From contig MGHI01000020.1 in NCBI GenBank assembly GCA_001793155.1, positions 9,898 to 73,897 of the forward strand: 64,000 nt of DNA, given 5' to 3'. Position numbers and translations under genes: made by a program. Below are positions 13,721 through 49,606 of the stretch, piece by piece (positions within the stretch are counted from its first letter, which is position 1; each line of letters starts with the position of its first letter). Under the pieces are notes generated by a model. The model was not told the origin of the DNA and did not search any database. It saw nothing but the letters and a program-made list of their open reading frames with translations. The stretch comes from Candidatus Woesebacteria bacterium RIFCSPLOWO2_01_FULL_39_61 (GTDB lineage Bacteria > Patescibacteriota > Microgenomatia > UBA8517).

Positions 13721-13730
13721 CTTTTTCTTC

Positions 13731-25562: not shown

Positions 25563-25566
25563 AGAT

Positions 25567-32725: not shown

Positions 32726-32816
32726 ACAAAGAATATCACAAAATCTAAACCAGCTATATCAGTTCATTGAATCAGTTCACGTTTGGTGTAAAAATAGATT
32801 ATATCAACCGAAAAAA

Positions 32817-34298
32817 ATGAAAATTAGATACGACCTAAGAAGGAATTGTCTTATTTTAATTATCTTAATTTTAGGACTATTTTTGAGACTTTATAAGGCA
32901 CAAGAATTATTTTTATACGGCCACGATCATGATCTTGCCGGGTGGTTTGTTAGAGACGTAGTAGAAAACATGCACTTTCGTTTAATAGGCCAAGAAACTT
33001 CAACACAAGGAATTTTTATAGGGCCAGTTTACTACTATTTGTTGGTTCCTTTTTACCTTTTATCAGGAATGGACCCGATAGGAGGAGTTATTTTAGTGAC
33101 GTTTTTGGGCCTTATTAGTATCTGGAGTGTTTACTGGATTTTTTCAAAAATTTTTGACAAAAACACTGGATTAATCGGTGCATTTATTTACGCTACTTCT
33201 TTCTATTTAGTTTTTAACGACAGGGAAGTTGTTCCGACAATGCCTGTAATACTATGGACTTTATGGCTTTTGTATGCTATCCACTTATTATTAAAAAGAA
33301 ACATAGGGCGTGGACTTATCTTGTCGGGAATTTTAATCGGGTTAATTTGGAATTTAAATTTTGCTCTCATACTTACCGTTCCACTTTTGGTGGTTGCGCT
33401 CTTGTTGCAAGGGAAAAAGTTCGATAAGTTCGTAATTATTCCCGGTGCTTTAACCCTTTTAGGTACCTTACTACCCTTATTGCTTTTTGAAGTAAAACAC
33501 GGATTTATCCAGACAAAGGCTTTTTTTGTCGCCCTCACAACTCCGCAGCGTGATATTTTTTCCGGTTCGGAAAAGTTGCAAAGAGTGATCCACCTCGCAA
33601 GCAAAAACATTTCGGGATTCCTGTGGGGTGATGTTGGGATAAATTACACTTGGGCGGCAATCACAATTCTTCTTATATTCTTATTCTTGACAATTAAGAA
33701 AATAATAAAAAGAGAGTGGATAATTCTGTTTTCCCTTTGGATCATCACCTACGTAGTATTTTTTTCTTTGTATTCAAAGGCGGTTTCCGAGTATTACCTA
33801 AACGGAATTACCGTTATTTGGATTACGCTACTCTCACTTTTCCTGTCTTATCTTTTTTCACTTAAAAAATATAAAATACTTGGGATCATATGCTTGAGTA
33901 TTTTTCTTATATCTAATGTATATCGCATTTTAAGTGTACACGTAAATAAAAGTGGTTACGTCTATAGAAAAGAGCTGGTAAAAGAAATAAAAGCCGATGC
34001 CCGACTTCATAGTTATCCCTGTGTTGCGGTTTCTTATATTACAAATCCCGGATATGACTTAGGATATAGATACTTTTTCTACTTAGAAAATATGCATGTA
34101 AATAAACCTAATTCAGGAAGTCCAGTATATACTATTGTTTTTCCCCTTAACGAAAACCTTTTTCCGGCTGGTAAAACATTTGGCGCATTAGGATTAATTT
34201 ATCCGGATTATGGAAAGTATGATGGCGGTCAAGTTACAATAAGCTGTTCCGGTGCGAATTCCAATTTAACAGATCCTATGTTCGGGTTCACAAAATAA
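32817..34298 (+). CDS. GT-C-fold membrane glycosyltransferase, ArnT/PMT-like, paralog C
   Basis: Start at the internal Met (MKIRYDL..) to avoid overlap with the divergent gene; ..RLYKAQELFLYGHDHDLAGWFVRD..GPVYYYLLVPFYLL.. Confidence 0.6.
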   Translation: MKIRYDLRRNCLILIILILGLFLRLYKAQELFLYGHDHDLAGWFVRDVVENMHFRLIGQETSTQGIFIGPVYYYLLVPFYLLSGMDPIGGVILVTFLGLISIWSVYWIFSKIFDKNTGLIGAFIYATSFYLVFNDREVVPTMPVILWTLWLLYAIHLLLKRNIGRGLILSGILIGLIWNLNFALILTVPLLVVALLLQGKKFDKFVIIPGALTLLGTLLPLLLFEVKHGFIQTKAFFVALTTPQRDIFSGSEKLQRVIHLASKNISGFLWGDVGINYTWAAITILLIFLFLTIKKIIKREWIILFSLWIITYVVFFSLYSKAVSEYYLNGITVIWITLLSLFLSYLFSLKKYKILGIICLSIFLISNVYRILSVHVNKSGYVYRKELVKEIKADARLHSYPCVAVSYITNPGYDLGYRYFFYLENMHVNKPNSGSPVYTIVFPLNENLFPAGKTFGALGLIYPDYGKYDGGQVTISCSGANSNLTDPMFGFTK

Positions 34299-34300
34299 AA

Positions 34301-35068
34301 ATGAAAAAAATATTTTTGTCGGTTATTATCCCCTGTTATAACGAAAGCGAGAATCTTAAAAGAGGAGTTTTAACTCAGGTGTATGAATTTTTGAAAACTG
34401 AAAAATTTGACTGGGAAGTGCTGGTTTCTGATGACGGAAGTTCCGACGAGAGTAAAATTATTGTTAAAAAACAAATAAAAAACTGGAAGAATTTCAGATT
34501 CTTGGAAAATCCTCACGGTGGAAAACCATCCGCGCTTTGGTATGGAATAAAGAAAGCTGGGGGTAAGTTCGTTCTTTTTTCCGATATGGACCAGTCAACA
34601 CCCATTGATCAACTGACAAAACTTCTTCCTTTTATTAGCGAAAAAGTTGGGGCAGTCATAGGTTCCAGAGGTTTAGTGCGTAAAAACTTCCCTTTATACC
34701 GCAAGATTGGCTCCATTGTTTTTATGGCAGTGAGAAAACTTTTTATTTTACCCGAGATAGACGATACCCAGTGCGGTTTTAAACTTTTCCAAACAAAAGT
34801 TGTTAAAAAAGTGTTTCCGATGCTGGAATTTTTCAGAAAAATGACTAAGGCTAAAGGCTGGACGGTAACAAGTTGGGATGTGGAACTTTTGCATATTATT
34901 AAGAAAATGGGGTATACAATTGAAGAAGTACCGGTTTTTTGGGAAGATATAGATATAAGCAAAGGTAAAGGAGGATCGTTAAAAAGATACCTTCGCGAAT
35001 CCAAAGAAATGATAATCCAAATAACTAAAGTAAAATTAAATGATATACGGGGAATTTATGGACCTTAA
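34301..35068 (+). CDS. polyprenol-phosphate sugar synthase-type GT2 (DPM1/CsbB-like)
   Basis: ..SVIIPCYNESENL..VLVSDDGSSDES..FSDMDQSTP..QCGFKLFQTK.. Confidence 0.75.
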   Translation: MKKIFLSVIIPCYNESENLKRGVLTQVYEFLKTEKFDWEVLVSDDGSSDESKIIVKKQIKNWKNFRFLENPHGGKPSALWYGIKKAGGKFVLFSDMDQSTPIDQLTKLLPFISEKVGAVIGSRGLVRKNFPLYRKIGSIVFMAVRKLFILPEIDDTQCGFKLFQTKVVKKVFPMLEFFRKMTKAKGWTVTSWDVELLHIIKKMGYTIEEVPVFWEDIDISKGKGGSLKRYLRESKEMIIQITKVKLNDIRGIYGP

Positions 35069-36638
35069 GAAATTAATAAAACTCTGGCGGAAAGAAATAT
35101 TTTTTGGTATTGGAATTTTTTCGCTTGCACTTATTCTTCGCCTAGCAAAAGTACTTTTCGATCAGCAACCGATATTCGGGGACGAGGCAATTTATATCCG
35201 TTGGGCGCAAATTATGCGTGCCGAGCCGACATTGAGGTTTATTCCGCTATCCGACGGTAAACAGCCTCTCTACATGTGGGCGATTATACCTTTGCTTAAA
35301 TTAATTTCAAACCCTCTTTTTGCCGGAAGAATTATGTCAGTATTTACCGGAATGGGATCTTTAGTAGGGGTATTCGTTCTGACACAAATTCTTTTTCGCT
35401 CAACCAAAGCGTCTCTTTTGGCATCATTGGTTTATGCAATTTCGCCGTTTGTAGTCTTTTTTGACAGCATGGCGCTAGTCGACTCGATGCTGACAATGTT
35501 CGGAATTTGGACGCTGGTTTTTTCGGTACTAAGTGTTAAAGCATTACGCTTGGACTTTGCTATGATCGCCGGATTTTTCCTTGGTGGTGCTATGTTGACC
35601 AAGTCTCCGGCAGTATTTTTTAGCATCTTACTTCCCCTCGATCTTCTTTTCTTAAATTTAGCTAAGGATAAAGGCAAAAAAGCAATTATCTTGATTAAAT
35701 TCTTAATCTTATTAATGGTCACTTATTTGATTGCATTCGGTTTATATAATATCCTCCGCCTCGGCCCCAACTTTCATCTGATTGCGTTAAGAAACCAAGA
35801 CTATATTTTCCCTTTAAGTCATCTTTGGATAAATCCCAAAGATCCGTTTATTTTCCATATTAAAGAAATTTTCCAATGGCTTTGGATTTTAGGGCCATCG
35901 GTGCTGCCCCTTTTGGTAGCAATCGGAATTATATTGAGATTTAATAAATTCAAAAAAGAGATTTTTCTGCTTTCTTTCTGGATACTCTTACCACTTTTAG
36001 CCAATGCAATGTACGCCAAAGTTTTTACAGTACGCTACATTTTGTTTGTTCTGCCTTATCTTTTTATTTTTGTGGGGGTTTTATTTAAGAACGATCTGAA
36101 AAAATCTTTTATTACTCTTCTTTTGGCAATCTTTATAGTTCACGCTCTAATAATAGATTTAACCTTGATAACAAAAATTGAAGCAGCCCCTTTGCCCAGA
36201 AACGAAAGAAGCGGATACCTGGAAGAGTGGACGGCGGGCTATGGTATAAAGGAAACTGCCAAATATCTTGAGGAATATCACAAAGATAATCCCGACAAAA
36301 AAATAGTTGTCGGAACCGAAGGGTATTTTGGAACGTTACCCGATGGGCTTCAGATGTACTTAAGTCGTTTTCCTGAAATTACGGTAATAGGTGTGGGATT
36401 GGATTTGAACCAATTACCTTCCAGTCTAATCGAATCCAAAAAGGCGGGAAATAGCACATTTCTGGTTATAAACGATTCGAGACTTAGGGTGAACTACGAA
36501 GATTTGGATTTGAAAGTCGTCGCAGCTTATCCCAAAGCCTTTAGGAAAGTGGGTACCAAAGAGTATAATACACTCGGTCCCAGAGAAACGCTTTATCTTT
36601 TCGAAGTAATTGGAGATAAAAATACCGATAAAAAATGA
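35058..36638 (+). CDS. GT-C-fold membrane glycosyltransferase, ArnT-like
   Basis: ..LFDQQPIFGDEAIYIRWAQIM..DGKQPLYMW.. then about 11 TM and a C-terminal soluble domain. Confidence 0.65.
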   Translation: MDLKKLIKLWRKEIFFGIGIFSLALILRLAKVLFDQQPIFGDEAIYIRWAQIMRAEPTLRFIPLSDGKQPLYMWAIIPLLKLISNPLFAGRIMSVFTGMGSLVGVFVLTQILFRSTKASLLASLVYAISPFVVFFDSMALVDSMLTMFGIWTLVFSVLSVKALRLDFAMIAGFFLGGAMLTKSPAVFFSILLPLDLLFLNLAKDKGKKAIILIKFLILLMVTYLIAFGLYNILRLGPNFHLIALRNQDYIFPLSHLWINPKDPFIFHIKEIFQWLWILGPSVLPLLVAIGIILRFNKFKKEIFLLSFWILLPLLANAMYAKVFTVRYILFVLPYLFIFVGVLFKNDLKKSFITLLLAIFIVHALIIDLTLITKIEAAPLPRNERSGYLEEWTAGYGIKETAKYLEEYHKDNPDKKIVVGTEGYFGTLPDGLQMYLSRFPEITVIGVGLDLNQLPSSLIESKKAGNSTFLVINDSRLRVNYEDLDLKVVAAYPKAFRKVGTKEYNTLGPRETLYLFEVIGDKNTDKK

Positions 36639-37885
36639 TTAAACACAGAATCATATATAACGATGCCTCGGACTGGTTATTCGATATAGTGAAAGCTAGT
36701 GGGGTTTACATCTGGGCCAAAAAAGGAGAAAAACTTCTGGATTTTACTTCCGGTTGGAATGTAACAAATTTGGGTTGGAACAATAACGAAATTGCTGAAG
36801 CTATGATTAAACAAATTAATGACAACGTCTATGCACCTATGGAAACTGCCGAAAATATACAATTACAGCTGGCGGAGTTGTTGACTGATAATCTACCAAA
36901 AGAATTAGACGCAGTGGGTAGAACAACAGGAGGAATGGAAGCAAATGAGGAAGCTATTAAAACGGCACGTGCATACACTAAAAGATCAAAGATTTTAGGT
37001 TTTCGTCACGCATATCATGGTCAATCTTTAACAATGATGTCAATAATTTTAGATGATAACGAAATGAGAGCTGTCGGGTCTCGTTTTGGAGAAATGTTAA
37101 AAATGGAGTTCCCCGCAACATACAAGTCAAATATGAAAGAAGATAATCTGTTAAAATATTTCGAAAGTAATCTGGAGGAAATATTGAATAAAGAGGATGT
37201 TGCCGCTTTGATAACAGAAGCGGGGATAATTACCGGTTGGGGATCTACATATGTGGCTCCAAAAGGATATTTAAAATTAGTTAGAAATTTAACGAGAAAA
37301 TATAATACATTATTGATTTTAGATGAAGTGGGCACAGGATTTTCAAGATGTGGCGAGTTATTTGGAATGAATATCGAAGATGTTGTGCCTGATATAGCAA
37401 CTTTTGCGAAAGGTTTTTCTAATGGCGCATCAGCTATAGGGGCAATGGTGACGACGAATAAAATAGCAGATAAAACATGGCCTTATACCAACTTGCAATC
37501 AACGTTTGGTTGGAACCTGGTTGGCTGTGCGGCTGCCAAAAAAAATTTGGAAATTCACTTAAGGGATAATATTTGGCAAAAATCAAAATCTGATGGCGAA
37601 TATGTGAGAGATGTTCTAATCAGCGAAATCATGAAGTTGGAATACATCGGTGATGTTAGAGGTTTTGGGATGGAAATCGGAATTAGCTTTGTAAAAAACA
37701 AAGAAACCAAAGAAGCCGATATTGATTTAGCTCGGAAAGTAATGTATGAATGTAGAAAAAGGGGATTGTATATTCTTTATGGCGATGATGGAAATATTCA
37801 ACTAATGCCACCCTTAATTATAAAACGACAAGATTTAGATTACGGTTTGAATATATTAATAGATACGGTAAAAACATTAAATTGA
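36635..37885 (+). CDS. class III (fold type I) PLP-dependent aminotransferase
   Basis: ..LLILDEVGTGFSRCGELFGMNIEDVVPDIATFAKGFSNG.. (PLP lysine in TFAKG). Confidence 0.75.
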   Translation: MIKHRIIYNDASDWLFDIVKASGVYIWAKKGEKLLDFTSGWNVTNLGWNNNEIAEAMIKQINDNVYAPMETAENIQLQLAELLTDNLPKELDAVGRTTGGMEANEEAIKTARAYTKRSKILGFRHAYHGQSLTMMSIILDDNEMRAVGSRFGEMLKMEFPATYKSNMKEDNLLKYFESNLEEILNKEDVAALITEAGIITGWGSTYVAPKGYLKLVRNLTRKYNTLLILDEVGTGFSRCGELFGMNIEDVVPDIATFAKGFSNGASAIGAMVTTNKIADKTWPYTNLQSTFGWNLVGCAAAKKNLEIHLRDNIWQKSKSDGEYVRDVLISEIMKLEYIGDVRGFGMEIGISFVKNKETKEADIDLARKVMYECRKRGLYILYGDDGNIQLMPPLIIKRQDLDYGLNILIDTVKTLN

Positions 37886-38041: not shown

Positions 38042-39316
38042 ATGGTAATCGGTATGTTTAGAAAATGGTGGTTTAAATGGCTCGTCGTCGGAATTTTAAT
38101 AAGACTAATTTTGATGCCGATCACTGTTCATCCCGATCTTTGGGTATTTACTTCAGCAGGTTATTTTTCAGCCTACGAGGGACGCCTGAGTATTTACGAG
38201 GATCTTGCTAATTTAAGTACCAACGAGCCGAACCATCCGTTAATAAAGATTGCGGGTAATATTAACGACTATTTTATATATCCGCCATTAGCCTATTTTA
38301 CTTTCGGTACCTTCCAAACTTTCCTGAAGCCGTTATTGGACCCTAATTTTATTCCCCAATACTGGAGTAATCCGGATTCTGTTTTTACCAATCCGTCCCT
38401 GCCCTGGCATTTGTTTTTATACAAACTTCCCTCACTTTTTATAGATATAGCTACAGCATTTTTATTAGCTGGTCTTTTTGAGAAACAATCAAGAAAAAAG
38501 TTAGCTTTTATTTTTTGGATGTTTAACCCGCTGACTGTTTACTCGACTTTTATGATGGGACAATTCGATATAATTCCGGTTTTATTTACTGTATTTGCTC
38601 TCGCTTTAGCCAAAAAGAAAAATTACTTTTGGGCGATATTATCACTGGGAGTCGCAGGAAGCTTTAAAATATATCCTCTTTTATTAATTCCGCCAATAGC
38701 TTTTTTGTCCGATAAGGATTTGTGGTCACGACTAAAATATCTGGTACTGGGATTTTTGCCTTTTTTAATAACAATCGCCTCATATATTTCCTCACCTGCC
38801 TTTAGACAGATGGTTTTATTTTCTTCCAAGAATCAAAAGATGCTCTTTTTGGGATTGCCTGTGTCGGGTGCAGAAGTTCTTTATCCATTTCTGATCATTT
38901 TGTTTTTAATATACTTTCACTCTCTTTATTCGAAGAAAACATTTGAATTATATGAATACTTTTTGATCATTCTTCTGACTATGTTTTCCGTTTCGAATTA
39001 CCACCCACAATGGTTTTTGTGGATCACTCCCTTCTTAATAATTTACTTAATAAAATATAATTTTAAATACGCTCTTTTGGTAGTGTCCTTATTCGGAGTC
39101 TGGTTAGTTTTAACACTTTTATTTGAAAGTTCACTTTCATACGGTCTTTTTAATCCGATATTCCCTAAATTAAAAGACGCAAAGAGTTTTGCCGATGTAT
39201 TTATTTCGTCTGATTTACTTTTTAAATTTAAAAGTATTATCAGAAGTATTTTTGCGGCCGTATCAATTTATATTTTTATATCCATCAATCAAAAGGAAGG
39301 AAACTATACCTCCTAA
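38042..39316 (+). CDS. multi-pass membrane protein, DUF2029/GT87-like putative GT-C glycosyltransferase
   Basis: ..FNPLTVYSTFMMGQFDIIPVLFTVFALALAKKK..LGVAGSFKIYPLLL.. resembles mannosyltransferase-type GT-C cores; TGcTAATAT extended -10 immediately upstream. Confidence 0.4.
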   Translation: MVIGMFRKWWFKWLVVGILIRLILMPITVHPDLWVFTSAGYFSAYEGRLSIYEDLANLSTNEPNHPLIKIAGNINDYFIYPPLAYFTFGTFQTFLKPLLDPNFIPQYWSNPDSVFTNPSLPWHLFLYKLPSLFIDIATAFLLAGLFEKQSRKKLAFIFWMFNPLTVYSTFMMGQFDIIPVLFTVFALALAKKKNYFWAILSLGVAGSFKIYPLLLIPPIAFLSDKDLWSRLKYLVLGFLPFLITIASYISSPAFRQMVLFSSKNQKMLFLGLPVSGAEVLYPFLIILFLIYFHSLYSKKTFELYEYFLIILLTMFSVSNYHPQWFLWITPFLIIYLIKYNFKYALLVVSLFGVWLVLTLLFESSLSYGLFNPIFPKLKDAKSFADVFISSDLLFKFKSIIRSIFAAVSIYIFISINQKEGNYTS

Positions 39317-39362: not shown

Positions 39363-40091
39363 ATGGCAAAAAATCCGGATTTGAGTATAGTTATTCCCGC
39401 TTACAATGAAGAAAAGATTATTCAAAGTACTATAGCAAAAGTTATTTCCTATTTGAAGCGAAAAAGATTCGACTGGGAAATAATAGTTGGTGACGACGGA
39501 AGTAAGGATAGAACTTCCAAGATTGTTGGTAGTGTAAAAGACAAGAAGGTACGATTGGTCAGGCTGGTAAAAAACAGAGGCAAAGGCGCCGCATTGCGAG
39601 AAGGAATTTTAAACGCAACAGGAAAGTATATTATATTTATGGATGCAGATTTATCTGTTCCTCTTGAAAATATAGAAATATTTTTTAACACTCTCAATAA
39701 AGGAGCGGACTTGGCCATCGCCTCGAGGAGGGTTAAAGGTGCAAAGATTTTAATACACCAGCCTTGGTATAGGGAGACAATGGGAAGGGTATTTACTTTG
39801 TTAACACAATTGGTTACCGGGACCGATGTTGCGGATTTTACCTGCGGATTTAAGGGTTTCAAAAAAGAATCTGCCAAAAAAATTTTCCGCGCATCTTTAA
39901 TCGACCGCTGGGCATATGATGCCGAGATTATTTTTTTGGCAAAAAAGTTTGGTTTAAAGATTAGGGAAATTCCGATTGTTTGGAAAAATAGGGAAGACAC
40001 CAGGGTTCGGTTGAAAAGCGTGGTTTTGGAGACATTCCGAGACCTTCTTAAGATAAGGTGGAACGATTTATCGGGCAAGTATGAAAATTAG
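39363..40091 (+). CDS. polyprenol-phosphate sugar synthase-type GT2 (CsbB/DPM1-like)
   Basis: ..LSIVIPAYNEEKII..IIVGDDGSKDRT..FMDADLSVP..FTCGFKGFKK.. Confidence 0.75.
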   Translation: MAKNPDLSIVIPAYNEEKIIQSTIAKVISYLKRKRFDWEIIVGDDGSKDRTSKIVGSVKDKKVRLVRLVKNRGKGAALREGILNATGKYIIFMDADLSVPLENIEIFFNTLNKGADLAIASRRVKGAKILIHQPWYRETMGRVFTLLTQLVTGTDVADFTCGFKGFKKESAKKIFRASLIDRWAYDAEIIFLAKKFGLKIREIPIVWKNREDTRVRLKSVVLETFRDLLKIRWNDLSGKYEN

Positions 40092-41763
40092 ATTATTTTC
40101 CAAAGATAGATTTTTAGTACTCCTTCTTTTGATATTAGCTGTACCAACTTTTTCCTCTTTGCTCCGGCCGGGATTTTTCCCGATGCACGACGATATGCAG
40201 GCAATGAGACTTCTTCAGATCGATAAGTGCGTAAAAGATCTACAAATTCCATGCCGTTGGGTGCCGGATATGGGCTACGGTTACGGATACCCGCAGTTTA
40301 ATTTTTACGCACCAATGCCGTACTACATCATGGAAGCATTTCACTTGGTTGGACTAGGATTTTTGGATAGCGTGAAGGCAGGATTTATTGCAAGCACGAT
40401 TTTTGCGCTAGTAGGCATGTATCTCTTGGGTAGATTTTTATGGGGGAAGATGGGGGGGGCGGTAAGCTCTTTTCTATATATTTATGCACCGTACAGAGCA
40501 GTCGATTTTTATGTTAGGGGAGCGGTGGGGGAGCTTTGGGCATTAGCGTTTCTACCGTTTATTTTTTTATATTCTGCGAAAAGTCTAGAGGATGGAAAAA
40601 AATATAAAGTTTTATTTGCATTATCACTCGCCTCTCTCCTAACGTCGCACAATATTAGTGCTTTAATTTTTATTCCGATACTTCTTCTTTGGTTTATTTT
40701 TCTACTTTGGTATAAAAAAGACTCTACTTCTCTGAAACTAAAAGCAAAGGGTTTTAATTTTTTTACAGGGCTTTTTTGGGGGTTTGCAATTTCTGCCTTT
40801 TTCGTAATTCCAGCTTGGTTTGAAAAAAATTTTGTTCATATAGAATCACTTTTAGGTGGGTACTTTAACTATATAAACCATTTTGTCGGAGTCAGGCAGC
40901 TTCTTTTTGAAAACCAATGGGGTTATGGGACTAGTGAAGTTGGTCCATACGACGATATCCTGCTTTCCGTCGGACTAATACAATGGCTTTTACCTTTGGT
41001 TGTCTTAATTTTGCTTTTGATTCTTAAAAGGAAAAAGAGTTTTTTTCTCGTTTTATTTTTTACGTTGTTGGGATGGATAGCTCTTTTTATGGCGCACTCC
41101 CGCTCAAGTTTTATCTGGGATAAATTGTACTTTTTAGCTATCCTGCAATTTCCCTGGAGATTTTTAATAATTGCGACTTTTCTTTTTTCACTGGCTTCTG
41201 GAAGTGTATCGCTTTTATTTAAAAAAGTAACGGCAGGATACAAATTAACCTTTATTTTATTGATAGTTATCGGTTTTATGCTGTATCGGAGTAATTTTGT
41301 TCCAAGGATTTGGATTGACATTTCCGACTCCGAAAAATTTTCCGGCGATTCCTGGCAAAGGCAGCAGACAATAAGTATATTTGATTATCTGCCGATTTAT
41401 GCAGAAAAACCTCCGGGGAGTGCGGCACCCAATAAACCGGTGGCAATTGAAGGCAGGGTAGGATCGATTGAAGGACAAAAGGGAACTGATTGGCAGATAT
41501 GGAATGTAGAAATTGAGAGTGAAACTGCGATACTGCAACTACCTTTGTATTATTTTCCTAACTGGGAAGTTTTTGTTAACGGAGTTAAAACTCCAATTAA
41601 CTACACTAACAAACTTGGTTTAATAACTTTTTTCCTAAATCAGGGGAGTCATGAAGTCAAGGCAGAGTTAAGAAATACTCCGGTTAGGGTAGCAGGGAAT
41701 ACCATAAGCATAGCAGGGGTTATAGCAGTACCAATTTACCTTAAAAAGAAGAAGAAAACATGA
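40081..41763 (+). CDS. GT-C-fold membrane protein, YfhO/PTPS-related family, tandem paralog 1
   Basis: ..LLRPGFFPMHDDMQAMRLLQIDKC..IPCRWVPDMGYGYGYPQFNFY..; C-terminal beta-sandwich ..LPLYYFPNWEVFVNG..; contains a G8 tract. Confidence 0.55.
   Translation: MKIRLFSKDRFLVLLLLILAVPTFSSLLRPGFFPMHDDMQAMRLLQIDKCVKDLQIPCRWVPDMGYGYGYPQFNFYAPMPYYIMEAFHLVGLGFLDSVKAGFIASTIFALVGMYLLGRFLWGKMGGAVSSFLYIYAPYRAVDFYVRGAVGELWALAFLPFIFLYSAKSLEDGKKYKVLFALSLASLLTSHNISALIFIPILLLWFIFLLWYKKDSTSLKLKAKGFNFFTGLFWGFAISAFFVIPAWFEKNFVHIESLLGGYFNYINHFVGVRQLLFENQWGYGTSEVGPYDDILLSVGLIQWLLPLVVLILLLILKRKKSFFLVLFFTLLGWIALFMAHSRSSFIWDKLYFLAILQFPWRFLIIATFLFSLASGSVSLLFKKVTAGYKLTFILLIVIGFMLYRSNFVPRIWIDISDSEKFSGDSWQRQQTISIFDYLPIYAEKPPGSAAPNKPVAIEGRVGSIEGQKGTDWQIWNVEIESETAILQLPLYYFPNWEVFVNGVKTPINYTNKLGLITFFLNQGSHEVKAELRNTPVRVAGNTISIAGVIAVPIYLKKKKKT
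40452..40459 (+). repeat. poly-G homopolymer (G8) inside the paralog-1 coding region
   Basis: aagATGGGGGGGGCGgta codes ..KMGGA..; longest G/C run noticed, in an AT-rich genome; currently in-frame. Confidence 0.6.
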
Positions 41764-43424
41764 AAGACAAAATTGTGATTTTAATACTATTATTAGTTAT
41801 TTTACCGTCGAGCTTTTACCTTTTAGGCCGTGGATATTTCAATATGCACGATGATCTTCAGGTAATGAGGGTTTATCAAATGGATAAATGTTTTGCCGAC
41901 GGACAAATTCCCTGCCGCTGGTCCCCGGATATGGTTTACGGATACGGTCAAGCGATGTTTAATTTCTATAGCGCATTTCCTTATTATCTTGGAGCACTGA
42001 TCAGACTCGCAACTCCCCTTTCGATTATGGCAACGGTAAAGACCCTTTTTCTTATCTCACTAGTTCTATCTGCAATCGGGATGTATTTGCTTGCCAAAGA
42101 ATTTTGGGGAAAACTCGGAGGAATCCTTTCGGCGGTCTTATATTCCTATGCCCCTTATCACGCACTGGACATCTTTGTGAGAGGTGCTTTGTCAGAGAGC
42201 TTTGCCTTAAGCATCCTGCCTTTTTTGTGGCTTTCATTTTATCGGTTAGTGAAAAATCCAGGATATAAATATTTAGCTACTACTTCCATAGCCCTTTTTT
42301 TTCTATTGACGACCCATAATATTTCCAGTCTTATTTATGCTCCTTTTACAATCTTGTGGGTTTCGTTTTGGATAATAACCAGTAAAAATTGGAAAAGCGT
42401 CAAGTATATTTTTTTGTCGGGAATGTTGGGAGTCGGACTTTCTTCGTTTTTCCTTTTGCCTGCGATTTTTGAACAGTCTTTAATTCAAACGGAGTATTTG
42501 ACCAGTGAGTATTCGGATTATCACGCCCACTTCGTTTCTTTAAAACAGCTGTTTCTTCAAAGAAGTTGGGGTTTCGGACCATCTATTTTCGGTCCATATG
42601 ATGATCTGTCTTTTCAAATCGGCTGGCCACATTGGTGGTTAGCAGTGCTAACATCTTTCATCGCATTTTTCTGGATTTACAAAAGAAGATTTCTCCAAGC
42701 TCTGATAGTTTTCGGGCTACTATCGTTTTTTCTTTTATCTGCATTTTTGACTCACCCACGCTCTTTCTTTATTTGGGACGCTTTGCCACTACTGAAATTT
42801 GTTCAGTTTCCATGGAGATTTTTGAGTCTTGTCATTTTCTTTCTATCGTTCGCCTGCGGAACCTTAGCCAGACCAAACTGGTTTTTTAGAAAGGGTTTAA
42901 TTATTTTCATAATAATATTAACAATAGGATTAAATTTAAAATTCTTTAAACCTTTTAATTTTTCGAGAGGAGCAAAAGATGTAGATAAGTTAACCGGAAT
43001 TGGTTATGAGCTCCAGGAGAAAGCCGCGATTTTAGATTATTTGCCCAAAACCGCTAAGACCGCTCCTCCGGCATCCGCGCCTACAACACCCAAGCTTGTT
43101 TCCGGAGAAGGGATTATTAGCGGTTTCACAAAACAGACCAATAGGTTTAGTTTTGACGCCGATATTTATCAGGATGCGGAAGCAGTGATTCCTGTGATGT
43201 ATTTTCCCGGTTGGATTACCATTCTTGATAACGAGAGGGTGAGTAGCGGGACATATGGGGCTCATGGAGTTATTAGCGTCAAAATTCCAAAAGGAAAGCA
43301 TATCATAAGAGGTAGGTTTATTAATACCCCCATACGTTCTTTTGCCAATTCCATAACTGTTTTTTCCTTAGTATTACTTTTGTCCGGGATGATTCTTCGG
43401 GATAATCGCAAACTTAAAATATGA
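41760..43424 (+). CDS. GT-C-fold membrane protein, YfhO/PTPS-related family, tandem paralog 2
   Basis: ..LLGRGYFNMHDDLQVMRVYQMDKC..IPCRWSPDMVYGYGQAMFNFY..; ATGA overlap. Confidence 0.55.
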   Translation: MKDKIVILILLLVILPSSFYLLGRGYFNMHDDLQVMRVYQMDKCFADGQIPCRWSPDMVYGYGQAMFNFYSAFPYYLGALIRLATPLSIMATVKTLFLISLVLSAIGMYLLAKEFWGKLGGILSAVLYSYAPYHALDIFVRGALSESFALSILPFLWLSFYRLVKNPGYKYLATTSIALFFLLTTHNISSLIYAPFTILWVSFWIITSKNWKSVKYIFLSGMLGVGLSSFFLLPAIFEQSLIQTEYLTSEYSDYHAHFVSLKQLFLQRSWGFGPSIFGPYDDLSFQIGWPHWWLAVLTSFIAFFWIYKRRFLQALIVFGLLSFFLLSAFLTHPRSFFIWDALPLLKFVQFPWRFLSLVIFFLSFACGTLARPNWFFRKGLIIFIIILTIGLNLKFFKPFNFSRGAKDVDKLTGIGYELQEKAAILDYLPKTAKTAPPASAPTTPKLVSGEGIISGFTKQTNRFSFDADIYQDAEAVIPVMYFPGWITILDNERVSSGTYGAHGVISVKIPKGKHIIRGRFINTPIRSFANSITVFSLVLLLSGMILRDNRKLKI

Positions 43425-45079
43425 AACAGTATTTCAGAACTTATTTATTTCAGATTTTACTTTTAGTCTTTTCAGTTCCGGCTCTTTATTACTTAATAAC
43501 TCCGGGATTCTACGAACCACACGATTTGCATCATCTTGCCGATATATACCAAATGGCGAGAGCAATCACTTCGAGTCAATTCCCGCCGCGCCTTGGCCCT
43601 GATTTTACCTTCGGATTCAGTTATCCCCTTTTCAATTTTTACTACGTACTTCCTTTCTATATTGGCAGTTTGTTTTATTTTCTTTTCGGAAGTCTGACGG
43701 CTAGCTTAAAATCCGTTTTTTTACTATCCTGCCTTCTATCGGTATTCGGAATGTATCTTTTTCTAAAGGAGTTTGTAGGAAAAGTAGCGAGTTTAGCGGG
43801 AGCCGTGCTTTTTTTGTACACTCCCTACAGGGCTGTACAACTCTACGTCCGAGGTGCAATCGGCGAAGCTTTGGCGTTGGCACTCCTTCCATATGTGGCA
43901 CTTTTTATTATTAAAGTCCTAAAAAGACCAAAGCCTATTTATATTTTTTGCTCCGCCATAATGTTTTCTTCATTTATTCTTTCTCATAACTACTTCTTTG
44001 CATTAAGTACGCCATTTTTAATATTTTTATTTTTACTAATTTTTCCAGAGTCAGAAGATAAAAAAAACGCGGTGTCGGGATTGATAATTGCTGCAGTATT
44101 ATCAATAGGCCTGACGGCATACTGGTGGTTGCCGGCCTTAATTGAGCAAGGTCTTGTTGCCTCGATAACCCCCTTTCCGTTAGTAGATCATTTCCCTTTT
44201 ATTAAACAGTTAATACTCCCCAGTTGGGGATACGGAAGCAGCGTTTGGGGACCCGACGATCAGATTTCTTTTCAAATCGGTATTGTGAATCTTTTGGCGG
44301 TACTTGCATCGGTCGTCATTTTTATTTTTAAAAGAAGTTTGTTTAAAAATTCCAGAGTTTTTATTTGGGCAATCGGAGGATTTTTTATAAGTATTTTTTT
44401 TATGAATATACGCTCGCTGCCTATTTGGAAGATGTTGCCTTTCTATAATTTTATCCAATTTCCCTGGAGGCTTTTAAGTTTTACTGCATTTTTTTCTTCA
44501 ATACTTTTAGCTTTGGTCATAGAGGCACTACCAAAAGCTAGAAAAGTTTTGTTTACTACTCTTACTTTGGCGATGGCGACCCTTTTGACTTACGGTTATT
44601 TCCGACCGAGTAAAATTGTTTACAAAAGTGATTCCGACTACTTAAATTATTTTTTCAGTGACCCGACTTATAGCGAAGATTATTTGCTACTGCCCAAATG
44701 GGTTGGTGTCAGGCCGACAAAAAAGCCCGATCACAAAGTAGAAGTTGAAAACGGAACTGTAGAAGAAATTAAAGAAATCACTCCAATTAAATGGTCCTCG
44801 AGAGTTTCATTGGATCAAAATTCAAAAGTTAAATTTAACACATATTATTTTCCAGGCTGGACGGCTTCGGTTGACGGGACCGCGGTGCAAATTACTTCCG
44901 GAGAACCTTACGGGCAGATTGAATTAAGTGTTTCTGAAGGTAAACACACGCTTGAATTTATATGGAAAGAGACGAAACTAAGAAGGGCAGCAGATATTAT
45001 AAGCTTTATTTCTCTGGTCGCGACCTTTTTATTACTGACGGAAAAAGGAAAGGCCGTGTTCAGAAGATCATATGTTTAA
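43421..45079 (+). CDS. GT-C-fold membrane protein, YfhO/PTPS-related family, tandem paralog 3 (N-terminal motif substituted)
   Basis: ..LITPGFYEPHDLHHLADIYQMARA..FPPRLGPDFTFGFSYPLFNFY..; HDD becomes HDL and PCRW becomes PPRL; ATGA overlap. Confidence 0.5.
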   Translation: MKQYFRTYLFQILLLVFSVPALYYLITPGFYEPHDLHHLADIYQMARAITSSQFPPRLGPDFTFGFSYPLFNFYYVLPFYIGSLFYFLFGSLTASLKSVFLLSCLLSVFGMYLFLKEFVGKVASLAGAVLFLYTPYRAVQLYVRGAIGEALALALLPYVALFIIKVLKRPKPIYIFCSAIMFSSFILSHNYFFALSTPFLIFLFLLIFPESEDKKNAVSGLIIAAVLSIGLTAYWWLPALIEQGLVASITPFPLVDHFPFIKQLILPSWGYGSSVWGPDDQISFQIGIVNLLAVLASVVIFIFKRSLFKNSRVFIWAIGGFFISIFFMNIRSLPIWKMLPFYNFIQFPWRLLSFTAFFSSILLALVIEALPKARKVLFTTLTLAMATLLTYGYFRPSKIVYKSDSDYLNYFFSDPTYSEDYLLLPKWVGVRPTKKPDHKVEVENGTVEEIKEITPIKWSSRVSLDQNSKVKFNTYYFPGWTASVDGTAVQITSGEPYGQIELSVSEGKHTLEFIWKETKLRRAADIISFISLVATFLLLTEKGKAVFRRSYV

Positions 45080-46427
45080 ATTTAAGCCGCTATCAAAAAG
45101 GGAAACTCGGTTAATATTATTTTTTTTTCTCCTTTTGGGTTTTTCAGTCAGAATCATTTTTGTACCTTACTGGGTAAAAATTGACGGAGACTTGCTTCTC
45201 TTTTCCGATTGGGGAATAAAATTCTGGCAGTATGGTACAAAAGACTTTTACTTTGTTAAAGATTGGCACTACGCGACCCCCAACTATCCTCCGATAATTT
45301 CTTTAGTATACGGAGCGAGTTACTGGCTCTTTGATCACAAGTTCTATTTAGCACAGCTGCATAACCTAATAAGAATTCCGCCAGCCGTATTTATTATTTA
45401 TTTTTATCGAGAAGGTTATTGGCTACTTCTTAAAATGCCCTCAATATTGTCGGATCTCGGTATCGCAGCTATTATTTACAAGCTGGTTAAGGATTTTACT
45501 AAATCTTTCAAAGTGGCTTTTGCTGCATCTTTGTTTTATCTATTTAACCCCATTTCAATTTTTTTAAGCGGAGTTTGGGGACAGTCCGATAGTATGGTGT
45601 CACTTTTGGGTATGGGAGCATTTACCTTGCTGATCAGGGGAATGCCTGGAGCTTCAATCCTTTTTTACTTTAGCAGTCTCTATATAAAACCTAACTGGTT
45701 GATTTTTGCTCCGCTTTATCTTTTTATATTTTACAAGCTTCGTCCAAAGTTAAGGAGCTTGGTCATAGGAAGTGTTTCAACTATCGCACTTTTTGTCGTT
45801 TCTACCGCTCCTTTTGCGAAAGAAGGAATTCTACCCTTTTCCTGGTGGTTACTTAGGGAGAGGATAATTCCTACGGCAACGGTCGCCGGAAAACTTTCAG
45901 TCTCTGCTTTTAATTTCTACACCATTTTTTTTACTATCGACAAACACCCGGTCACGACTCAAGTTTTGGGTTTACCATTGGGAATGGCGGGGTGGATTTT
46001 GTTTCTGACGGTAAATTTGATAGTCATCTCCGGTCTTGTTAAAAAGAAGTTATCTGAACCCGACGTGGTTTATTCCCTTTTTACAATCGGATTTGCCGGG
46101 TTTTTGTTTTTGCCGAATATGCTGGAAAGATACTTTTTTCCCTCCTTCATTCCGATGATTATTCTGATATTTTCCCAACCGAGGTTGCTAACCTACGGTC
46201 TGATTATCAATATGTCGCTATTTATGAATATAGTCTGGGCGTTTTTCAGAAGAACCAAAGGCGAGATTAATGATTTTTTTACCGAAAATAACTTTTTAGT
46301 CATCAGGATTTTGTCGTCGTTAGTAGCACTGTCTTGGCTTTTCATTGTCACACGAGGGGAATTTCAAACAAAACATGTTACATCTCTGAAAAACAAGCTT
46401 CTCATGTTAAAATTTAGTCGTGGCTGA
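45072..46427 (+). CDS. multi-pass membrane protein, DUF2029-like putative GT-C
   Basis: ..FNPISIFLSGVWGQSDSMVSLLGMGAFTLLIRG.. parallels the motif in the 38042 protein. Confidence 0.35.
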   Translation: MFKFKPLSKRETRLILFFFLLLGFSVRIIFVPYWVKIDGDLLLFSDWGIKFWQYGTKDFYFVKDWHYATPNYPPIISLVYGASYWLFDHKFYLAQLHNLIRIPPAVFIIYFYREGYWLLLKMPSILSDLGIAAIIYKLVKDFTKSFKVAFAASLFYLFNPISIFLSGVWGQSDSMVSLLGMGAFTLLIRGMPGASILFYFSSLYIKPNWLIFAPLYLFIFYKLRPKLRSLVIGSVSTIALFVVSTAPFAKEGILPFSWWLLRERIIPTATVAGKLSVSAFNFYTIFFTIDKHPVTTQVLGLPLGMAGWILFLTVNLIVISGLVKKKLSEPDVVYSLFTIGFAGFLFLPNMLERYFFPSFIPMIILIFSQPRLLTYGLIINMSLFMNIVWAFFRRTKGEINDFFTENNFLVIRILSSLVALSWLFIVTRGEFQTKHVTSLKNKLLMLKFSRG

Positions 46428-47919
46428 AGTAACTAATGAAGAAGAACATTTGGACCCAACCAGCGAGATATCGCTCACCGCAGTAAAGGAAAGGGCTGTC
46501 AAAGGAGTTGCTGTATTAACTGGAAGGACATTTGTTTTAAGTTTAATCTCTTTAGTAGCGACTGGATTTTTGACTGTTTTTTTGGAACCCAGCGAGTTCG
46601 GAGTTTTTTGGATCGTTTCGGCCGTAGTCAATTTCCTGGTTTATTTTTCAGATATCGGGCTTGCCGCTGCACTCATTCAGAAGAAAGAAAAATTAAAAAA
46701 AAGCGAACTAAATACAACTTTTTTAGTTCAGCAAAGTCTGGTTATATCGCTTTTAATCATTTTATATTTATCGACCCCCTTTTTAAAAAGATATTATTCG
46801 TTAAGTGACGAAGGGGAATTTTTATTTTATGCCCTTGGTGCCTCACTTTTTCTATCGTCCCTAAAGACAATCCCCTCGGTTTTAATGGAGAGGCGATTGG
46901 AATTCGGAAAACTGGTGATTCCCCAAGTCCTTGAAAATCTTGTCTATAACCTGGTCGCCGTTTTTTTGGCTTGGAGCGGGTTCGGAATCAGGAGCTTTAC
47001 CTATTCGGTTCTTGCCAGGGGAATAGTTGGGCTTATCGTAATTTATATGCTAAGGCCGTGGTTTCCGGCTTTAAATTTTTCGAGAAAATCCCTCAGGAAG
47101 TTGCTAACATTTGGGATACCTTATCAGGTTAATACTTTTTTGGCCACGATTAAGGACGATGGCATGACCGCATATCTGGGCGGGATTTTGGGACCTACCG
47201 GAATCGGATTTTTGGGTTGGGCCCAAAAATGGGCCTACATGCCGCTTAGACTTTTCCTGGACCACGTTTTAAAGGTAACTTTCCCGGCGTTCTCCCGTAT
47301 GCAGAATGATAAGAAAGAACTCGAATACGCCGTTACCAGATCAATCTTTTTTGTATGTTTTCTGGTTTTTCCAAGTGTTGCCGGTCTTATTATCCTGGCT
47401 CCGATTTTAATAAAAATTATCCCGCGCTACGAAAAATGGGAACCGGCTCTTTTTCCTTTAGCTTTGATAAGTATTAATACCCTGTTTGCGGCAGCAACCA
47501 CGCAATTGACAAATTTACTCAATGCCATAGGAAAGATAAAAGTGACCTTTAAACTAATGGTGATGTGGACTGTCTTAACCTGGATATTCGTACCTTTTCT
47601 GACGATAAAATACGGGGTTAACGGGGCGGCTTTCGGATATGCAATGGTCGGAGCCAGTTCCATAATTGCTATTTATATAGTAAGAAAAATTATTAATTTT
47701 TCCCTTTACCGAAGTGTTTTTACACCCGCCGTTGCCGCCATAATAATGGCTTTGGTACTTTTACTATTTAAAGGATTCCTTCCAGTTAATATTACTTCCG
47801 TATGGCTTTTGGTGTTTGCAGGGACATTAGTTTATATGATATCCATGTACTTTTTGGTGGGTCCTTTAATACTCGCTGATGCTAAAAAAGGTATTCGGGC
47901 CGTTTTTTCAAGGAATTAA
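46420..47919 (+). CDS. wzx: oligosaccharide/polysaccharide flippase, MOP superfamily (Wzx-like)
   Basis: 499 aa; about 12-14 TM; N-terminus ..VKGVAVLTGRTFVLSLISLVATGFLTVFLEPSEFGVFW..DIGLAAALIQ.. typical of Polysacc_synt flippases. Confidence 0.65.
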   Translation: MAEVTNEEEHLDPTSEISLTAVKERAVKGVAVLTGRTFVLSLISLVATGFLTVFLEPSEFGVFWIVSAVVNFLVYFSDIGLAAALIQKKEKLKKSELNTTFLVQQSLVISLLIILYLSTPFLKRYYSLSDEGEFLFYALGASLFLSSLKTIPSVLMERRLEFGKLVIPQVLENLVYNLVAVFLAWSGFGIRSFTYSVLARGIVGLIVIYMLRPWFPALNFSRKSLRKLLTFGIPYQVNTFLATIKDDGMTAYLGGILGPTGIGFLGWAQKWAYMPLRLFLDHVLKVTFPAFSRMQNDKKELEYAVTRSIFFVCFLVFPSVAGLIILAPILIKIIPRYEKWEPALFPLALISINTLFAAATTQLTNLLNAIGKIKVTFKLMVMWTVLTWIFVPFLTIKYGVNGAAFGYAMVGASSIIAIYIVRKIINFSLYRSVFTPAVAAIIMALVLLLFKGFLPVNITSVWLLVFAGTLVYMISMYFLVGPLILADAKKGIRAVFSRN

Positions 47920-49606
47920 TCGATACGGATGGGCGCTAATTGGGCTCGGGACCATTGCGTGGTCGGCAACAATGGTAAAAAGCGGGTTGGTTTATTCCTT
48001 TGGAATGGGTTTTTGGGGACCGAATGGTCACGATGGTGTGTGGCATATTTCTTTAGCCCAAGGGTTGGCACATGGATCTTTGAAAATGCTCATTTTTTCC
48101 GGGGAGAAAATAAAAAATTATCATATCGGATACGATCTTATTCTAGCAGCACTTCATAAACTAACCCTTCTTCCCATTCACACTTTATATTTTCAGATAC
48201 TCCCACCCATACTTGCTATACTAGCCGGCTCGCTTTGCTATCTTTTTATTCTAAGGTGGACGCGCTCGACAAAGAGTGCTTTTTGGGCGACATTCTTTGT
48301 CTATTTCGGGGGAAATTGGGGTTGGGTTATTTCCTACCTAAGAAACCATGATTTAGCGGGCGAGTCGATGTTTTGGTCGCAGCAGTCCATATCGACACTT
48401 CTTAATCCGCCCTTTGCTTTGTCGCTTTTCCTCATCTTTTTAGGACTTAGATTTTTGCTATCCGGTATCGAAAACGAGAACAAAAAATCCCTGGTAATTT
48501 CGACTTTACTTTTCGGAATATTAGTTCAGATAAAAGTTTACGCCGGAGTACTTTGTTTGGGCGCGCTTTTCATTTCCGGAATTTGGCGAATGCTTCAAAA
48601 AAAAGGAACGTCGGCAATAAAGATGTTCACTGGCGTAATTTCGGTCTCGGTATTAGTGTTGGCACCTCTGACGACGAATACAAATAATATTTTGGTTTTT
48701 AAACCGTTTTGGTATTTGGAGACAATGATGACTTTTTCCGACCGCCTCAATTGGCCGAGATTCGGCGAAGCAATGATAAATTATCAACTTGCCGGAAACT
48801 GGATTAAGGGAATCCCAGCATATCTTATTGCACTATTTATTTTTTGGTTCGGTAACCTGGGTACGAGGGTTTTCAAAGAAGTTTTATTTATTCGCCACAT
48901 TAAAAACCCCAGTAAGATGGATTTTATAACGGTATTTATTTTCTCTGTTATTGGAGGAGGTTTGGTACTGCCTTTACTTTTTATTCAAAATGGAACCGCC
49001 TGGAATACCATTCAGTTTATGTATTATTCCTTGATGTTTTCAGGAATCTTAGCCGGAATCAGTCTGGGAAACTTTTTGGAAAAAACTAAGTCTGGAGTAA
49101 GTCGATTTTTGGTCGGAGGGGTCGTATTTATACTGACTATTCCGACAACCATAGGAACGCTGAGACACTATTTACCTTCGAGACCGCCGGCAAAGATTTC
49201 GTTAGAAGAGCTTCAGGCATTGAAATTTTTAGCCAAAGAGGCCGATGGAGTTATTTTAACTTTACCTTTCGATAGGATAGCTGCTGATGCTGCCGCAGGA
49301 AATCCCCCGAGGCCTCTCTACTTATACGAATCAACTGCCTACGTTTCGGCTTTTACAGCTAAACCTGTTTTTATGGAAGACGAAGTAAATTTGGAAATAA
49401 CCGGATTCGACTGGAGAGGAAGAAAAGAAAAAATTTTGGATTTTATTTCAACACCAAGCCAGGAAAAAGCTAAAGCTTTTCTAAAAAAAGAGGGAATAAC
49501 TTATGTTTATTGGATAAAGGAAGGGAGGGGAAGAATCGATCAAAAGCAGGATGTGCTTCAGTCAATTTATGAAAACAGTGAAGTTCAAATTCTAAAAACA
49601 AAGTGA
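47879..49606 (+). CDS. polytopic membrane protein with C-terminal extracytoplasmic domain (Wzy-like polymerase/GT-C candidate)
   Basis: 575 aa, at least 12 TM, ..GFWGPNGHDGVWHISLAQ.. loop; adjacent to Wzx; start uncertain (41-nt overlap). Confidence 0.3.
   Translation: MLKKVFGPFFQGINRYGWALIGLGTIAWSATMVKSGLVYSFGMGFWGPNGHDGVWHISLAQGLAHGSLKMLIFSGEKIKNYHIGYDLILAALHKLTLLPIHTLYFQILPPILAILAGSLCYLFILRWTRSTKSAFWATFFVYFGGNWGWVISYLRNHDLAGESMFWSQQSISTLLNPPFALSLFLIFLGLRFLLSGIENENKKSLVISTLLFGILVQIKVYAGVLCLGALFISGIWRMLQKKGTSAIKMFTGVISVSVLVLAPLTTNTNNILVFKPFWYLETMMTFSDRLNWPRFGEAMINYQLAGNWIKGIPAYLIALFIFWFGNLGTRVFKEVLFIRHIKNPSKMDFITVFIFSVIGGGLVLPLLFIQNGTAWNTIQFMYYSLMFSGILAGISLGNFLEKTKSGVSRFLVGGVVFILTIPTTIGTLRHYLPSRPPAKISLEELQALKFLAKEADGVILTLPFDRIAADAAAGNPPRPLYLYESTAYVSAFTAKPVFMEDEVNLEITGFDWRGRKEKILDFISTPSQEKAKAFLKKEGITYVYWIKEGRGRIDQKQDVLQSIYENSEVQILKTK

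Follow-up and report, generated by a model that had tools for sequence, protein, structure and literature searches.

YfhO and CsbB of Bacillus subtilis glycosylate lipoteichoic acid with N-acetylglucosamine (GlcNAc), and the ALG and Aft/Emb enzymes form sets of paralogs that each draw on one lipid-linked monosaccharide donor and add successive residues in different linkages. Where GT-C transferases have been compared, at least the first aspartate of the loop motif is common to all of them, and the loop DD has been aligned with D55/E56 of ArnT, D77/E78 of Pmt1 and D281/D282 of EmbA (PMC7801869). In several GT-C structures that have been solved, the aspartate proposed to be catalytic comes after the first transmembrane helix (TM1) (PMC11127046); in the study that characterised YfhO, neither its catalytic residues nor a conserved acidic motif could be defined (PMC5836110). 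The family PF10131 (PTPS_related) is listed in the GT-C clan with its function given as unknown (PMC7801869), and a literature search found no characterised member. Here we describe a stretch of 64,000 nucleotides from Candidatus Woesebacteria bacterium RIFCSPLOWO2_01_FULL_39_61 (the window), in which three tandem paralogs related to PF10131 (P1, P2 and P3) lie directly downstream of a gene for a GT2 glycosyltransferase. Their homology, predicted fold, conservation, synteny and purifying selection make it fairly probable that they are three catalytically competent, non-redundant glycosyltransferases of the GT-C_A fold with different specificities, the third of which carries a remodelled first outer loop.

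The third of three colinear paralogs has a distinct first outer loop

At 40081-45079 the open reading frames (ORFs), their junctions and an end-to-end alignment bear out the first-pass annotation of this DNA, which had described three colinear tandem paralogs coupled through ATGA overlaps, with a GT2 gene upstream. The alignment gave 38% identity between P1 and P2 and 30% between P1 and P3. Because a BLASTP comparison of P1 with P3 returned E = 1e-60 over the full length, the likeness of these two sequences is far beyond chance. A2962_03350 of Candidatus Woesebacteria RIFCSPLOWO2_01_FULL_39_61 matches P1 at 100% identity, and the window can accordingly be assigned to the Microgenomates, within the candidate phyla radiation.

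The loop strings quoted earlier proved exact for all three paralogs, reading FFPMHDDMQAMRLLQIDKC..IPCRWVPDMGYGYG in P1, YFNMHDDLQVMRVYQMDKC..IPCRWSPDMVYGYG in P2 and YEPHDLHHLADIYQ..FPPRLGPDFTFGFS in P3. We compared them within orthogroups of at least 120 orthologues each (at least 47% identity for P1 and at least 48% for P3), whose lists share no sequence and which we call the G1, G2 and G3 types. In a 356-sequence alignment, the first aspartate of the loop (D37 in P1, D31 in P2, D35 in P3) was conserved at ~100% in all three orthogroups, and we regard it as the putative catalytic residue. The second aspartate (D38, D32) is replaced by leucine in 98% of the G3 orthogroup; the position of R43 in P1 and R37 in P2 is aspartate in 100% of it (D41, six residues past D35); and C50 and C58, found at 100% in the G1 and G2 groups, give way to alanine and proline. 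Taken group by group, D37, D38, R43, C50 and C58 are each conserved at 98-100% in G1, and D35 (100%), L36 (98%), D41 (100%), A48 (92%) and P56 (99%) in G3. The difference of the P3 loop is real and clade-wide. The loss of the HDD motif, as it had been put, holds for the second D, which has become L, but not for the H and the first D (D35), which are kept.

In 52 columns of the same alignment, all three groups have one and the same residue at a frequency of at least 90%, among them R146, G147, E151, H190, N191, E248, H267, D291, QFPWR (356-360), D416 and D435-Y-L. The first outer loop is the lowest-entropy and most conserved part of each paralog (0.51 bits in P1, 0.55 in P2 and 0.70 in P3, compared with 1.4-1.6 bits for the whole proteins, 1.59 in P1 and 1.50 in P3). 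Among the P3 orthologues the loop YEPHDLHHxADIYQMxRAxxSGQxPPR(L/W)GPDFxFGYGYPLFNFYY is near-invariant at an overall identity of 48-60%.

Equal length, a common architecture and a shared operon might suggest that the genes arose by recent duplication and are redundant, all three having one function and their loop differences being neutral drift. An identity of only 30-38%, membership in separate orthogroups with no sequence in common, group-specific residues fixed at 92-100%, and a duplication older than the split of several Microgenomates lineages make redundancy very improbable.

A family-wide census separates an invariant from an optional acid

A phmmer search against 1.84 billion cluster representatives returned 10,570 relatives as clusters at 50% identity (E <= 1e-3), 2,041 of them at E <= 1e-30; PF10131 is thus a large family within the GT-C clan. 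From the best phmmer matches we took 150 representatives, all of them loop-bearing domains. At the first loop position, aspartate was found in 147 and glutamate in the other three; the second position carried D in 49, E in 41 and no acid in 60 (40%). The second acid has been lost in at least three separate clades, and those outside G3 read TQD(Y/H)I...PVRW and MHD-FH. The alignment of the family gave the outcome that the first-pass annotation had said would count against its reading: the second acidic position is not conserved, and it is optional in the PF10131 family. A missing 'DD' or 'DxD' is accordingly not to be read as lost activity. The acidic pair cannot be said to have been lost in P3: the position of its first residue is acidic in all 150 representatives, and only the second, variable one has changed.

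The PCRW motif, likewise reported as lost, fared similarly. P3 retains the P and the R, and its PPRL is near the commonest family form, P(P/V)RW. The cysteine pair was present in 17 representatives, absent from 133, and never reduced to a single cysteine. We also scanned 80 loci, one genome per species, in which matches were confirmed with paralog 1, so that the sample is biased, and in which ORFs were typed by hidden Markov models of the orthogroups. In these loci both cysteines occurred in 110 sequences, neither in 31 and one alone in none, which brings the combined count of both-or-neither to 291 of 291. This perfect co-occurrence in an outer loop suggests that the pair probably forms a disulfide. 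Its distribution looks like a gain in the P1/P2 clade rather than a loss in P3.

P3 keeps every residue that is conserved at 85% or more in the family, with the sole exception of G69, which is S67 in P3. The retained positions include R57, R144, E149, H189, E242, H257, W336 and Q346-x-P-W-R350. The serine is peculiar to the P3 of this genome; its orthologues have glycine. In a neighbour-joining tree the G3 type is monophyletic and stands at the deepest split. Most members of the G3 clade still read SDDLH, SDEVH or HDETQ, and HDLHHxAD is confined to a terminal Woesebacteria subclade. The pattern indicates that remodelling of the P3 loop, from D-(D/E)-x-H...N to D-L-H-H...D, took place within Woesebacteria. 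P3, which belongs to the deepest, monophyletic branch of this local tree, does not appear to be a decayed copy.

An alternative register that places D35 on the second D was rejected. The span from PGFY to PPR is 30 residues in both DD-type and DL-type G3 sequences, with no shift of A, Q or M.

The third paralog is under constraint

We estimated the ratio of nonsynonymous to synonymous substitution rates (dN/dS) against L001, a syntenic locus of a related genome with 81-87% protein identity. A comparison between the paralogs themselves, which had been proposed, was dropped because a protein identity of 30-38% leaves synonymous sites saturated, and orthologue pairs with L001 were used instead. 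The values were 0.14 for P1, 0.10 for P2 and 0.15 for P3, and those of four neighbouring genes lay at 0.05-0.12, the aminotransferase gene being saturated. All three paralogs have evolved under purifying selection.

It had also been suggested that P3 is non-catalytic. As a regulatory or scaffolding subunit that binds substrate or stabilises P1 and P2, such a pseudoenzyme could account for the leucine at the second acid and the aspartate in place of R43, and it would sit comfortably with the confinement of G3-type genes to the side of a DD/Cys-pair paralog, with the existence of fused two-domain proteins and with the slightly faster deep evolution of G3. We nevertheless consider it unlikely. 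The first aspartate, the only acid of the motif common to all GT-Cs compared in PMC7801869, is conserved at 100%, and all other polar residues that are conserved family-wide are kept in P3. The G3 clade as a whole is not acid-deficient, most of its members having DD or DE, and the second acid is in any case missing from 40% of the family representatives. More than 100 orthologues share the near-invariant loop, which is the most conserved segment of P3 and shows no relaxed constraint (0.70 vs 1.50 bits); the dN/dS of 0.15 is like that of neighbouring genes; and the Pfam score of P3 is the highest of the three.

Some observations do weigh against three competent enzymes. R43 is replaced throughout the G3 clade, though it is arginine in 113 of the 150 representatives, and the replacement could affect donor binding. 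G3-type genes were met only beside a paralog of the Cys-pair type, in the sample that was confirmed with paralog 1 and is biased in that respect. At deep distance G3 diverges somewhat faster (33-40% identity vs 39-49% in G1 and G2). Lastly, the gap-free operon holds no GtrA/GtcA/MATE-type flippase gene. With these points counted, we still favour three active enzymes. Remodelling of the P3 loop would most likely alter the handling of metal, donor or acceptor rather than abolish catalysis, and the altered specificity proposed for P3 remains plausible.

The paralogs match PF10131 and a predicted GT-C_A fold

PF10131 (clan CL0111) was the sole Pfam family matched by the paralogs, with 57.5 bits for P3, 43.3 for P2 and 18 for P1. 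Against the gathering cut-off of 26.4 bits, P2 and P3 pass and P1 alone falls below; P1 nonetheless shares its 38% identity with P2 over the full length. PF10131 matches were found in 74 of 86 relatives, and weak matches to PF09586 (YfhO) in only seven. P1, P2 and P3 gave no match to PF09586 at E <= 0.01 (gathering cut-off 28.5 bits). The YfhO label that the paralogs had been given does not hold for them and belongs instead to a genuine YfhO-family gene that sits 7 kb downstream, is the real YfhO homologue of the surrounding island, and has an FDQGW that corresponds to their YFPGW (Table 1). As no acidic motif is definable in YfhO, comparison with characterised YfhO proteins cannot decide the status of P3. 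Mapping the motif through PF10131 was likewise ruled out, because the model begins at about residue 70, past the loop with the putative catalytic aspartate, and is silent on that motif.

AlphaFold models built from 149-sequence alignments reached a predicted local distance difference test score (pLDDT) of 94.7 and a predicted template modelling score (pTM) of 0.93 for P3, and 94.0 and 0.93 for P1. The top Foldseek matches were AglB (7e9s), STT3 (6c26), AftD (6w98), PglB and ArnT for P3, and AglB, AftD and STT3 for P1. For both models the significant matches in the Protein Data Bank (PDB) were GT-C_A enzymes only (AglB, STT3, PglB, AftD, AftA, ArnT, Emb, PMT, DPY19), with a probability of 1.00, query-normalised TM-scores of 0.37-0.48 and 10-16% identity. 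The models thus assign the paralogs a predicted GT-C_A fold, and Pfam and fold agree with the earlier description of three tandem, PF10131-related GT-C paralogs directly downstream of a GT2 gene.

In both models the chain runs from TM1 through a first outer loop that includes short helices into a polytopic core, and on to an outer beta-sandwich and a last transmembrane helix. The YFP(G/N)W region forms the beta-sandwich in each and is followed by the last helix, which spans residues 519-551 in P3 (DSSP helices of the model). The P3 beta-sandwich gave partial Foldseek matches to accessory beta-sandwich domains of glycoside hydrolases (ranks 28-37). The modelled domain may bind carbohydrate.

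PDB sequence searches with P2, P3, a profile of 149 family sequences and a PMT_2 profile produced no usable match, and no PDB chain matched the family even with a profile. Since these searches had failed, PMT_2 paralogs within the window served as an indirect bridge to solved enzymes. With hhalign the family aligned with them at 96% probability, and its HDD was set on the GDE of the ORF at 35040-36638 (a PMT/ArnT-type 'DE'), where per-column confidence is low. In both AlphaFold models the conserved loop aspartate sits after TM1 and ahead of the first loop helix.

The arrangement of the paralogs varies among Microgenomates

All 80 loci of the scan are of Microgenomates type, including Woese-, Collier-, Ames-, Davies-, Blackburn- and Shapirobacteria. 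The order G1-G2-G3 was found in 16 of them, from Woese-, Collier-, Daviesbacteria and others; six more carry a G3-type gene in another arrangement, and 44 contain a single family member. Several loci (L003, L004, L007-L011 and others) stem from Third Party Annotation (TPA)-assembled metagenome-assembled genomes titled 'uncultured Gammaproteobacteria' or 'Pseudomonadales'. They are syntenic with Microgenomates, and these labels look wrong.

Among the family relatives, P0362 and P0366 each hold two family domains in one ORF, in which the last transmembrane helix, a short basic linker and the next TM1 make up a coherent topology. These are single metagenomic sequences, and they hint at physical cooperation of tandem paralogs. 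Counting P0387 and P0389, the multi-domain sequences P0362, P0366, P0387 and P0389 are 1093, 1116, 1670 and 3329 residues long and hold 2, 2, 4 and 2 family domains, some of those in P0387 partial; either they arose by natural fusion of tandem paralogs, or they are artefacts of frameshift or assembly.

Such arrangements raise the question of whether the three proteins form an obligate hetero-oligomeric GT-C complex, with all subunits active and the glycan handed between active sites. This overlaps with our favoured interpretation and differs from it only in physical association. Conservation of the order 1-2-3 across several Microgenomates lineages, overlapping start and stop codons that join the genes, the coherent junctions of the in-frame fusions, and the presence of solved GT-C heterodimers among the fold matches (Pmt1-Pmt2, 6p25; EmbA-EmbB, 7bvf) are all consistent with it. 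On the other hand, gene overlaps are common across this compact genome, the 44 loci with a single member show that the fold works alone, and the fusions, as single metagenomic cluster representatives, are possibly frameshift artefacts. On balance an obligate complex is a minority possibility, somewhat better placed than a non-catalytic P3. A further step, a fixed hetero-oligomeric assembly line that Microgenomates have conserved and in which the G3 protein of Woesebacteria has exchanged the usual acidic pair for a new, His-rich site (H34-D35-x-H37-H38...D41), is speculative and in our judgement improbable. If it were true, the His-rich site would imply a different metal dependence or chemistry, such as one that transfers a phospho-sugar or a group other than a sugar, and the two-domain fusions would be a fossil trace of the complex. 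Our preferred interpretation remains that of three separately competent enzymes.

An unanchored GT2 precedes the paralogs in a surface-glycan island

The positions of the features considered here are collected in Table 1. The upstream GT2 gene overlaps P1 by 11 nt, an ATGA (start on stop) forms the junction at both P1/P2 and P2/P3, and the downstream ORF overlaps P3 by 8 nt. Other 4-nt overlaps occur at 1100, 27174 and 36635, and short overlaps are frequent throughout the window, so the ATGA overlaps of the paralogs, which fit an operon, are nothing special. A scan for promoters and terminators gave counts equal to those of shuffled controls, that is, background level.

Table 1. Features of the window discussed in the text; positions count from its first nucleotide.
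Feature	Position	Strand	Description
GT2 glycosyltransferase	39363..40091	+	242 aa, soluble; PF00535 E = 2e-37
Paralog 1 (P1, G1 type)	40081..41763	+	560 aa; membrane glycosyltransferase of predicted GT-C_A fold
P1 first outer loop	40165..40314	+	aa 29-78; H36-D37-D38, R43, C50, P57-C58-R59, P62-D63
Paralog 2 (P2, G2 type)	41760..43424	+	554 aa; membrane glycosyltransferase of predicted GT-C_A fold
P2 first outer loop	41826..41975	+	aa 23-72; H30-D31-D32, R37, C44, C52; HDD...C...PCRW type like P1
Paralog 3 (P3, G3 type)	43421..45079	+	552 aa; membrane glycosyltransferase of predicted GT-C_A fold, remodelled first outer loop
P3 first outer loop	43499..43648	+	aa 27-76; H34-D35-L36-H37-H38, D41, P55-P56-R57, P60-D61
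P3 C-terminal outer beta-sandwich, YFPGW motif	44738..44965	+	aa ~440-515; DSSP strands 440-515
Polytopic membrane protein, weakly GT87-like (GT-C)	38042..39316	+	424 aa; PF09594 E = 5e-5, 23.6 bits (cut-off 25)
Polytopic membrane protein	45072..46427	+	451 aa; no Pfam/NCBIfam match at E <= 5; syntenic in L001
Wzx-type MOP flippase	46420..47919	+	PF13440 E = 1.5e-52; NCBIfam MOP/O-glycosylation flippase similarities
YfhO-family GT-C	52435-54921	+	828 aa; PF09586 79.4 bits; FDQGW...GKH C-terminal beta-sandwich motif
GT2 fused to GtrA/DPMS TM domain (PF04138)	21286-22446	+	386 aa; DPMS-type polyprenyl-phosphate sugar synthase
Two further pairs, short soluble GT2 then PMT_2-type GT-C	24852-27177, 34301-36638		GT2 of 236 and 255 aa
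Further PMT_2-like ORFs	28708-30261, 32682-34298, 57138-58874		near or above Pfam cut-off

The best PDB sequence matches of the GT2 were the dolichol-phosphate mannose synthase (DPMS) of Pyrococcus (5mlz, E = 2.5e-20 over residues 6-231), GtrB (5ekp) and ArnC. Among NCBIfam models it came closest to ArnC, PgfS and dolichyl-phosphate hexose transferase, with scores that fall far short of the cut-offs. The protein ends where the transmembrane domains of DPMS, GtrB and ArnC start, and no hydrophobic 19-mer was found in it (Kyte-Doolittle maximum 1.16), from which it appears to be a CsbB/GtrB-like catalytic domain without a membrane anchor. Its earlier description as CsbB-like is apt as regards its resemblance to polyprenyl-phosphate sugar synthases but not as regards the C-terminal transmembrane helices of CsbB and GtrB, which it does not have. 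It presumably makes a lipid-linked sugar donor. GT2-GT-C fusions (P0210, P0420, L041 and L066) were considered as proof of coupling and then given less weight, the fused GT2 not being an orthologue of the one in the window; those of L041 and L066 score 118-120 bits, and true orthologues 288-460.

The window as a whole is a surface-glycan island with dTDP-sugar genes, many GT2 and GT4 genes, a Wzx flippase, GT-C genes and a sortase. The 64 kb contain about ten genes of GT-C type if the PMT_2 types, the GT87-like ORF and the YfhO gene are counted along with the three paralogs. The GT2 fusion at 21286-22446 holds the only GtrA-like module of the window, and the GT87-like ORF is syntenic in L001.

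Several other observations concern the island. Four large plus-strand ORFs have no Pfam match at E <= 5: 45072-46427, 47879-49606, 8271-9815 and 9818-11443, of 451, 575, 514 and 541 aa, respectively. The first two look polytopic, have no NCBIfam match and flank the Wzx flippase. These family-less ORFs could encode a polymerase or ligase, or more proteins of GT-C-like type. Only one gene of the glycan island lies on the minus strand (30365-32725); it encodes 786 aa with an MFS-like membrane part and a spermine/spermidine synthase domain. A sortase gene (13641-14273, plus strand) adjoins that of an fn3-domain surface protein (12854-13720) and is followed by an IS200-like transposase gene (14335-15009, plus strand); surface glycosylation could use the substrates of sortase as acceptors. 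Finally, the class-III aminotransferase at 36635-37885 shares 67% protein identity with its counterpart in L001 (651-1907), where neighbours share 81-93%, a divergence that suggests the gene was replaced or has evolved under another regime.

A possible division of labour behind one donor

Taken together, these features would fit the following scheme. The soluble GT2 would attach a sugar to polyprenyl phosphate on the inner side of the membrane, and the lipid-linked sugar would be flipped across by some flippase. Each paralog is predicted to have its N-terminus inside and a first outer loop with the putative catalytic aspartate. On the outer face the three GT-Cs would pass the sugar to a cell-surface glycan or glycoprotein, each perhaps forming its own linkage or serving its own acceptor position.

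What the locus chiefly offers is a clearer view of the loop residues that matter in PF10131; in other respects it is an ordinary case. For annotation, the census can be condensed to an invariant first aspartate, an optional second acid and a clade-specific cysteine pair. The conserved module of one GT2 and three paralogs offers a defined entry to cell-surface building in uncultured, small-genome Microgenomates.

Comparison with known systems

The locus resembles YfhO/CsbB of B. subtilis in its layout, a GT2 gene with a GT-C gene after it in the same operon, and in the predicted transfer of sugar on the outside from a lipid-linked donor (PMC5836110). In YfhO and in the paralog models an outer domain sits at the same place in the chain, between the last two transmembrane helices, with an F-x-x-G-W motif, but in the models it is only a beta-sandwich. 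The YfhO-family protein of the window aligned with the paralogs at 83% probability in hhalign, over core transmembrane helices only. YfhO-family proteins are longer, however, with 828 aa in the window copy and an outer loop of 389 aa in B. subtilis (PMC5836110), compared with ~110 aa in the paralogs. The systems differ further in that YfhO/CsbB has one GT-C gene where this locus has three, and in that the GT2 described here is without transmembrane helices.

With the solved GT-C_A enzymes (AglB/STT3/PglB, AftD, AftA, ArnT, PMT) the paralogs share the predicted fold and an acidic motif after TM1. Outer carbohydrate-binding modules are known among GT-C_A enzymes from AftD and Emb (PMC11127046), but the C-terminal beta-sandwich and last transmembrane helix of the paralogs are unlike those of the solved structures. 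The three-component GtrA/GtrB/Gtr* systems (PMC11127046, PMC8035078) similarly place a polyprenyl-phosphate sugar synthase-like GT2 beside a GT-C, and the setting is comparable, the window being a glycan cluster with a Wzx flippase and cytoplasmic GT2/GT4 genes. They differ in that the operon described here is without a small flippase gene and has three GT-C genes per GT2. ALG6/ALG8, ALG3/9/12 and the mycobacterial Aft/Emb enzymes (PMC13503287) have no specific sequence relationship to the paralogs and are comparable by analogy only; as such, these sets may serve as a working parallel to one GT2 followed by three paralogs.

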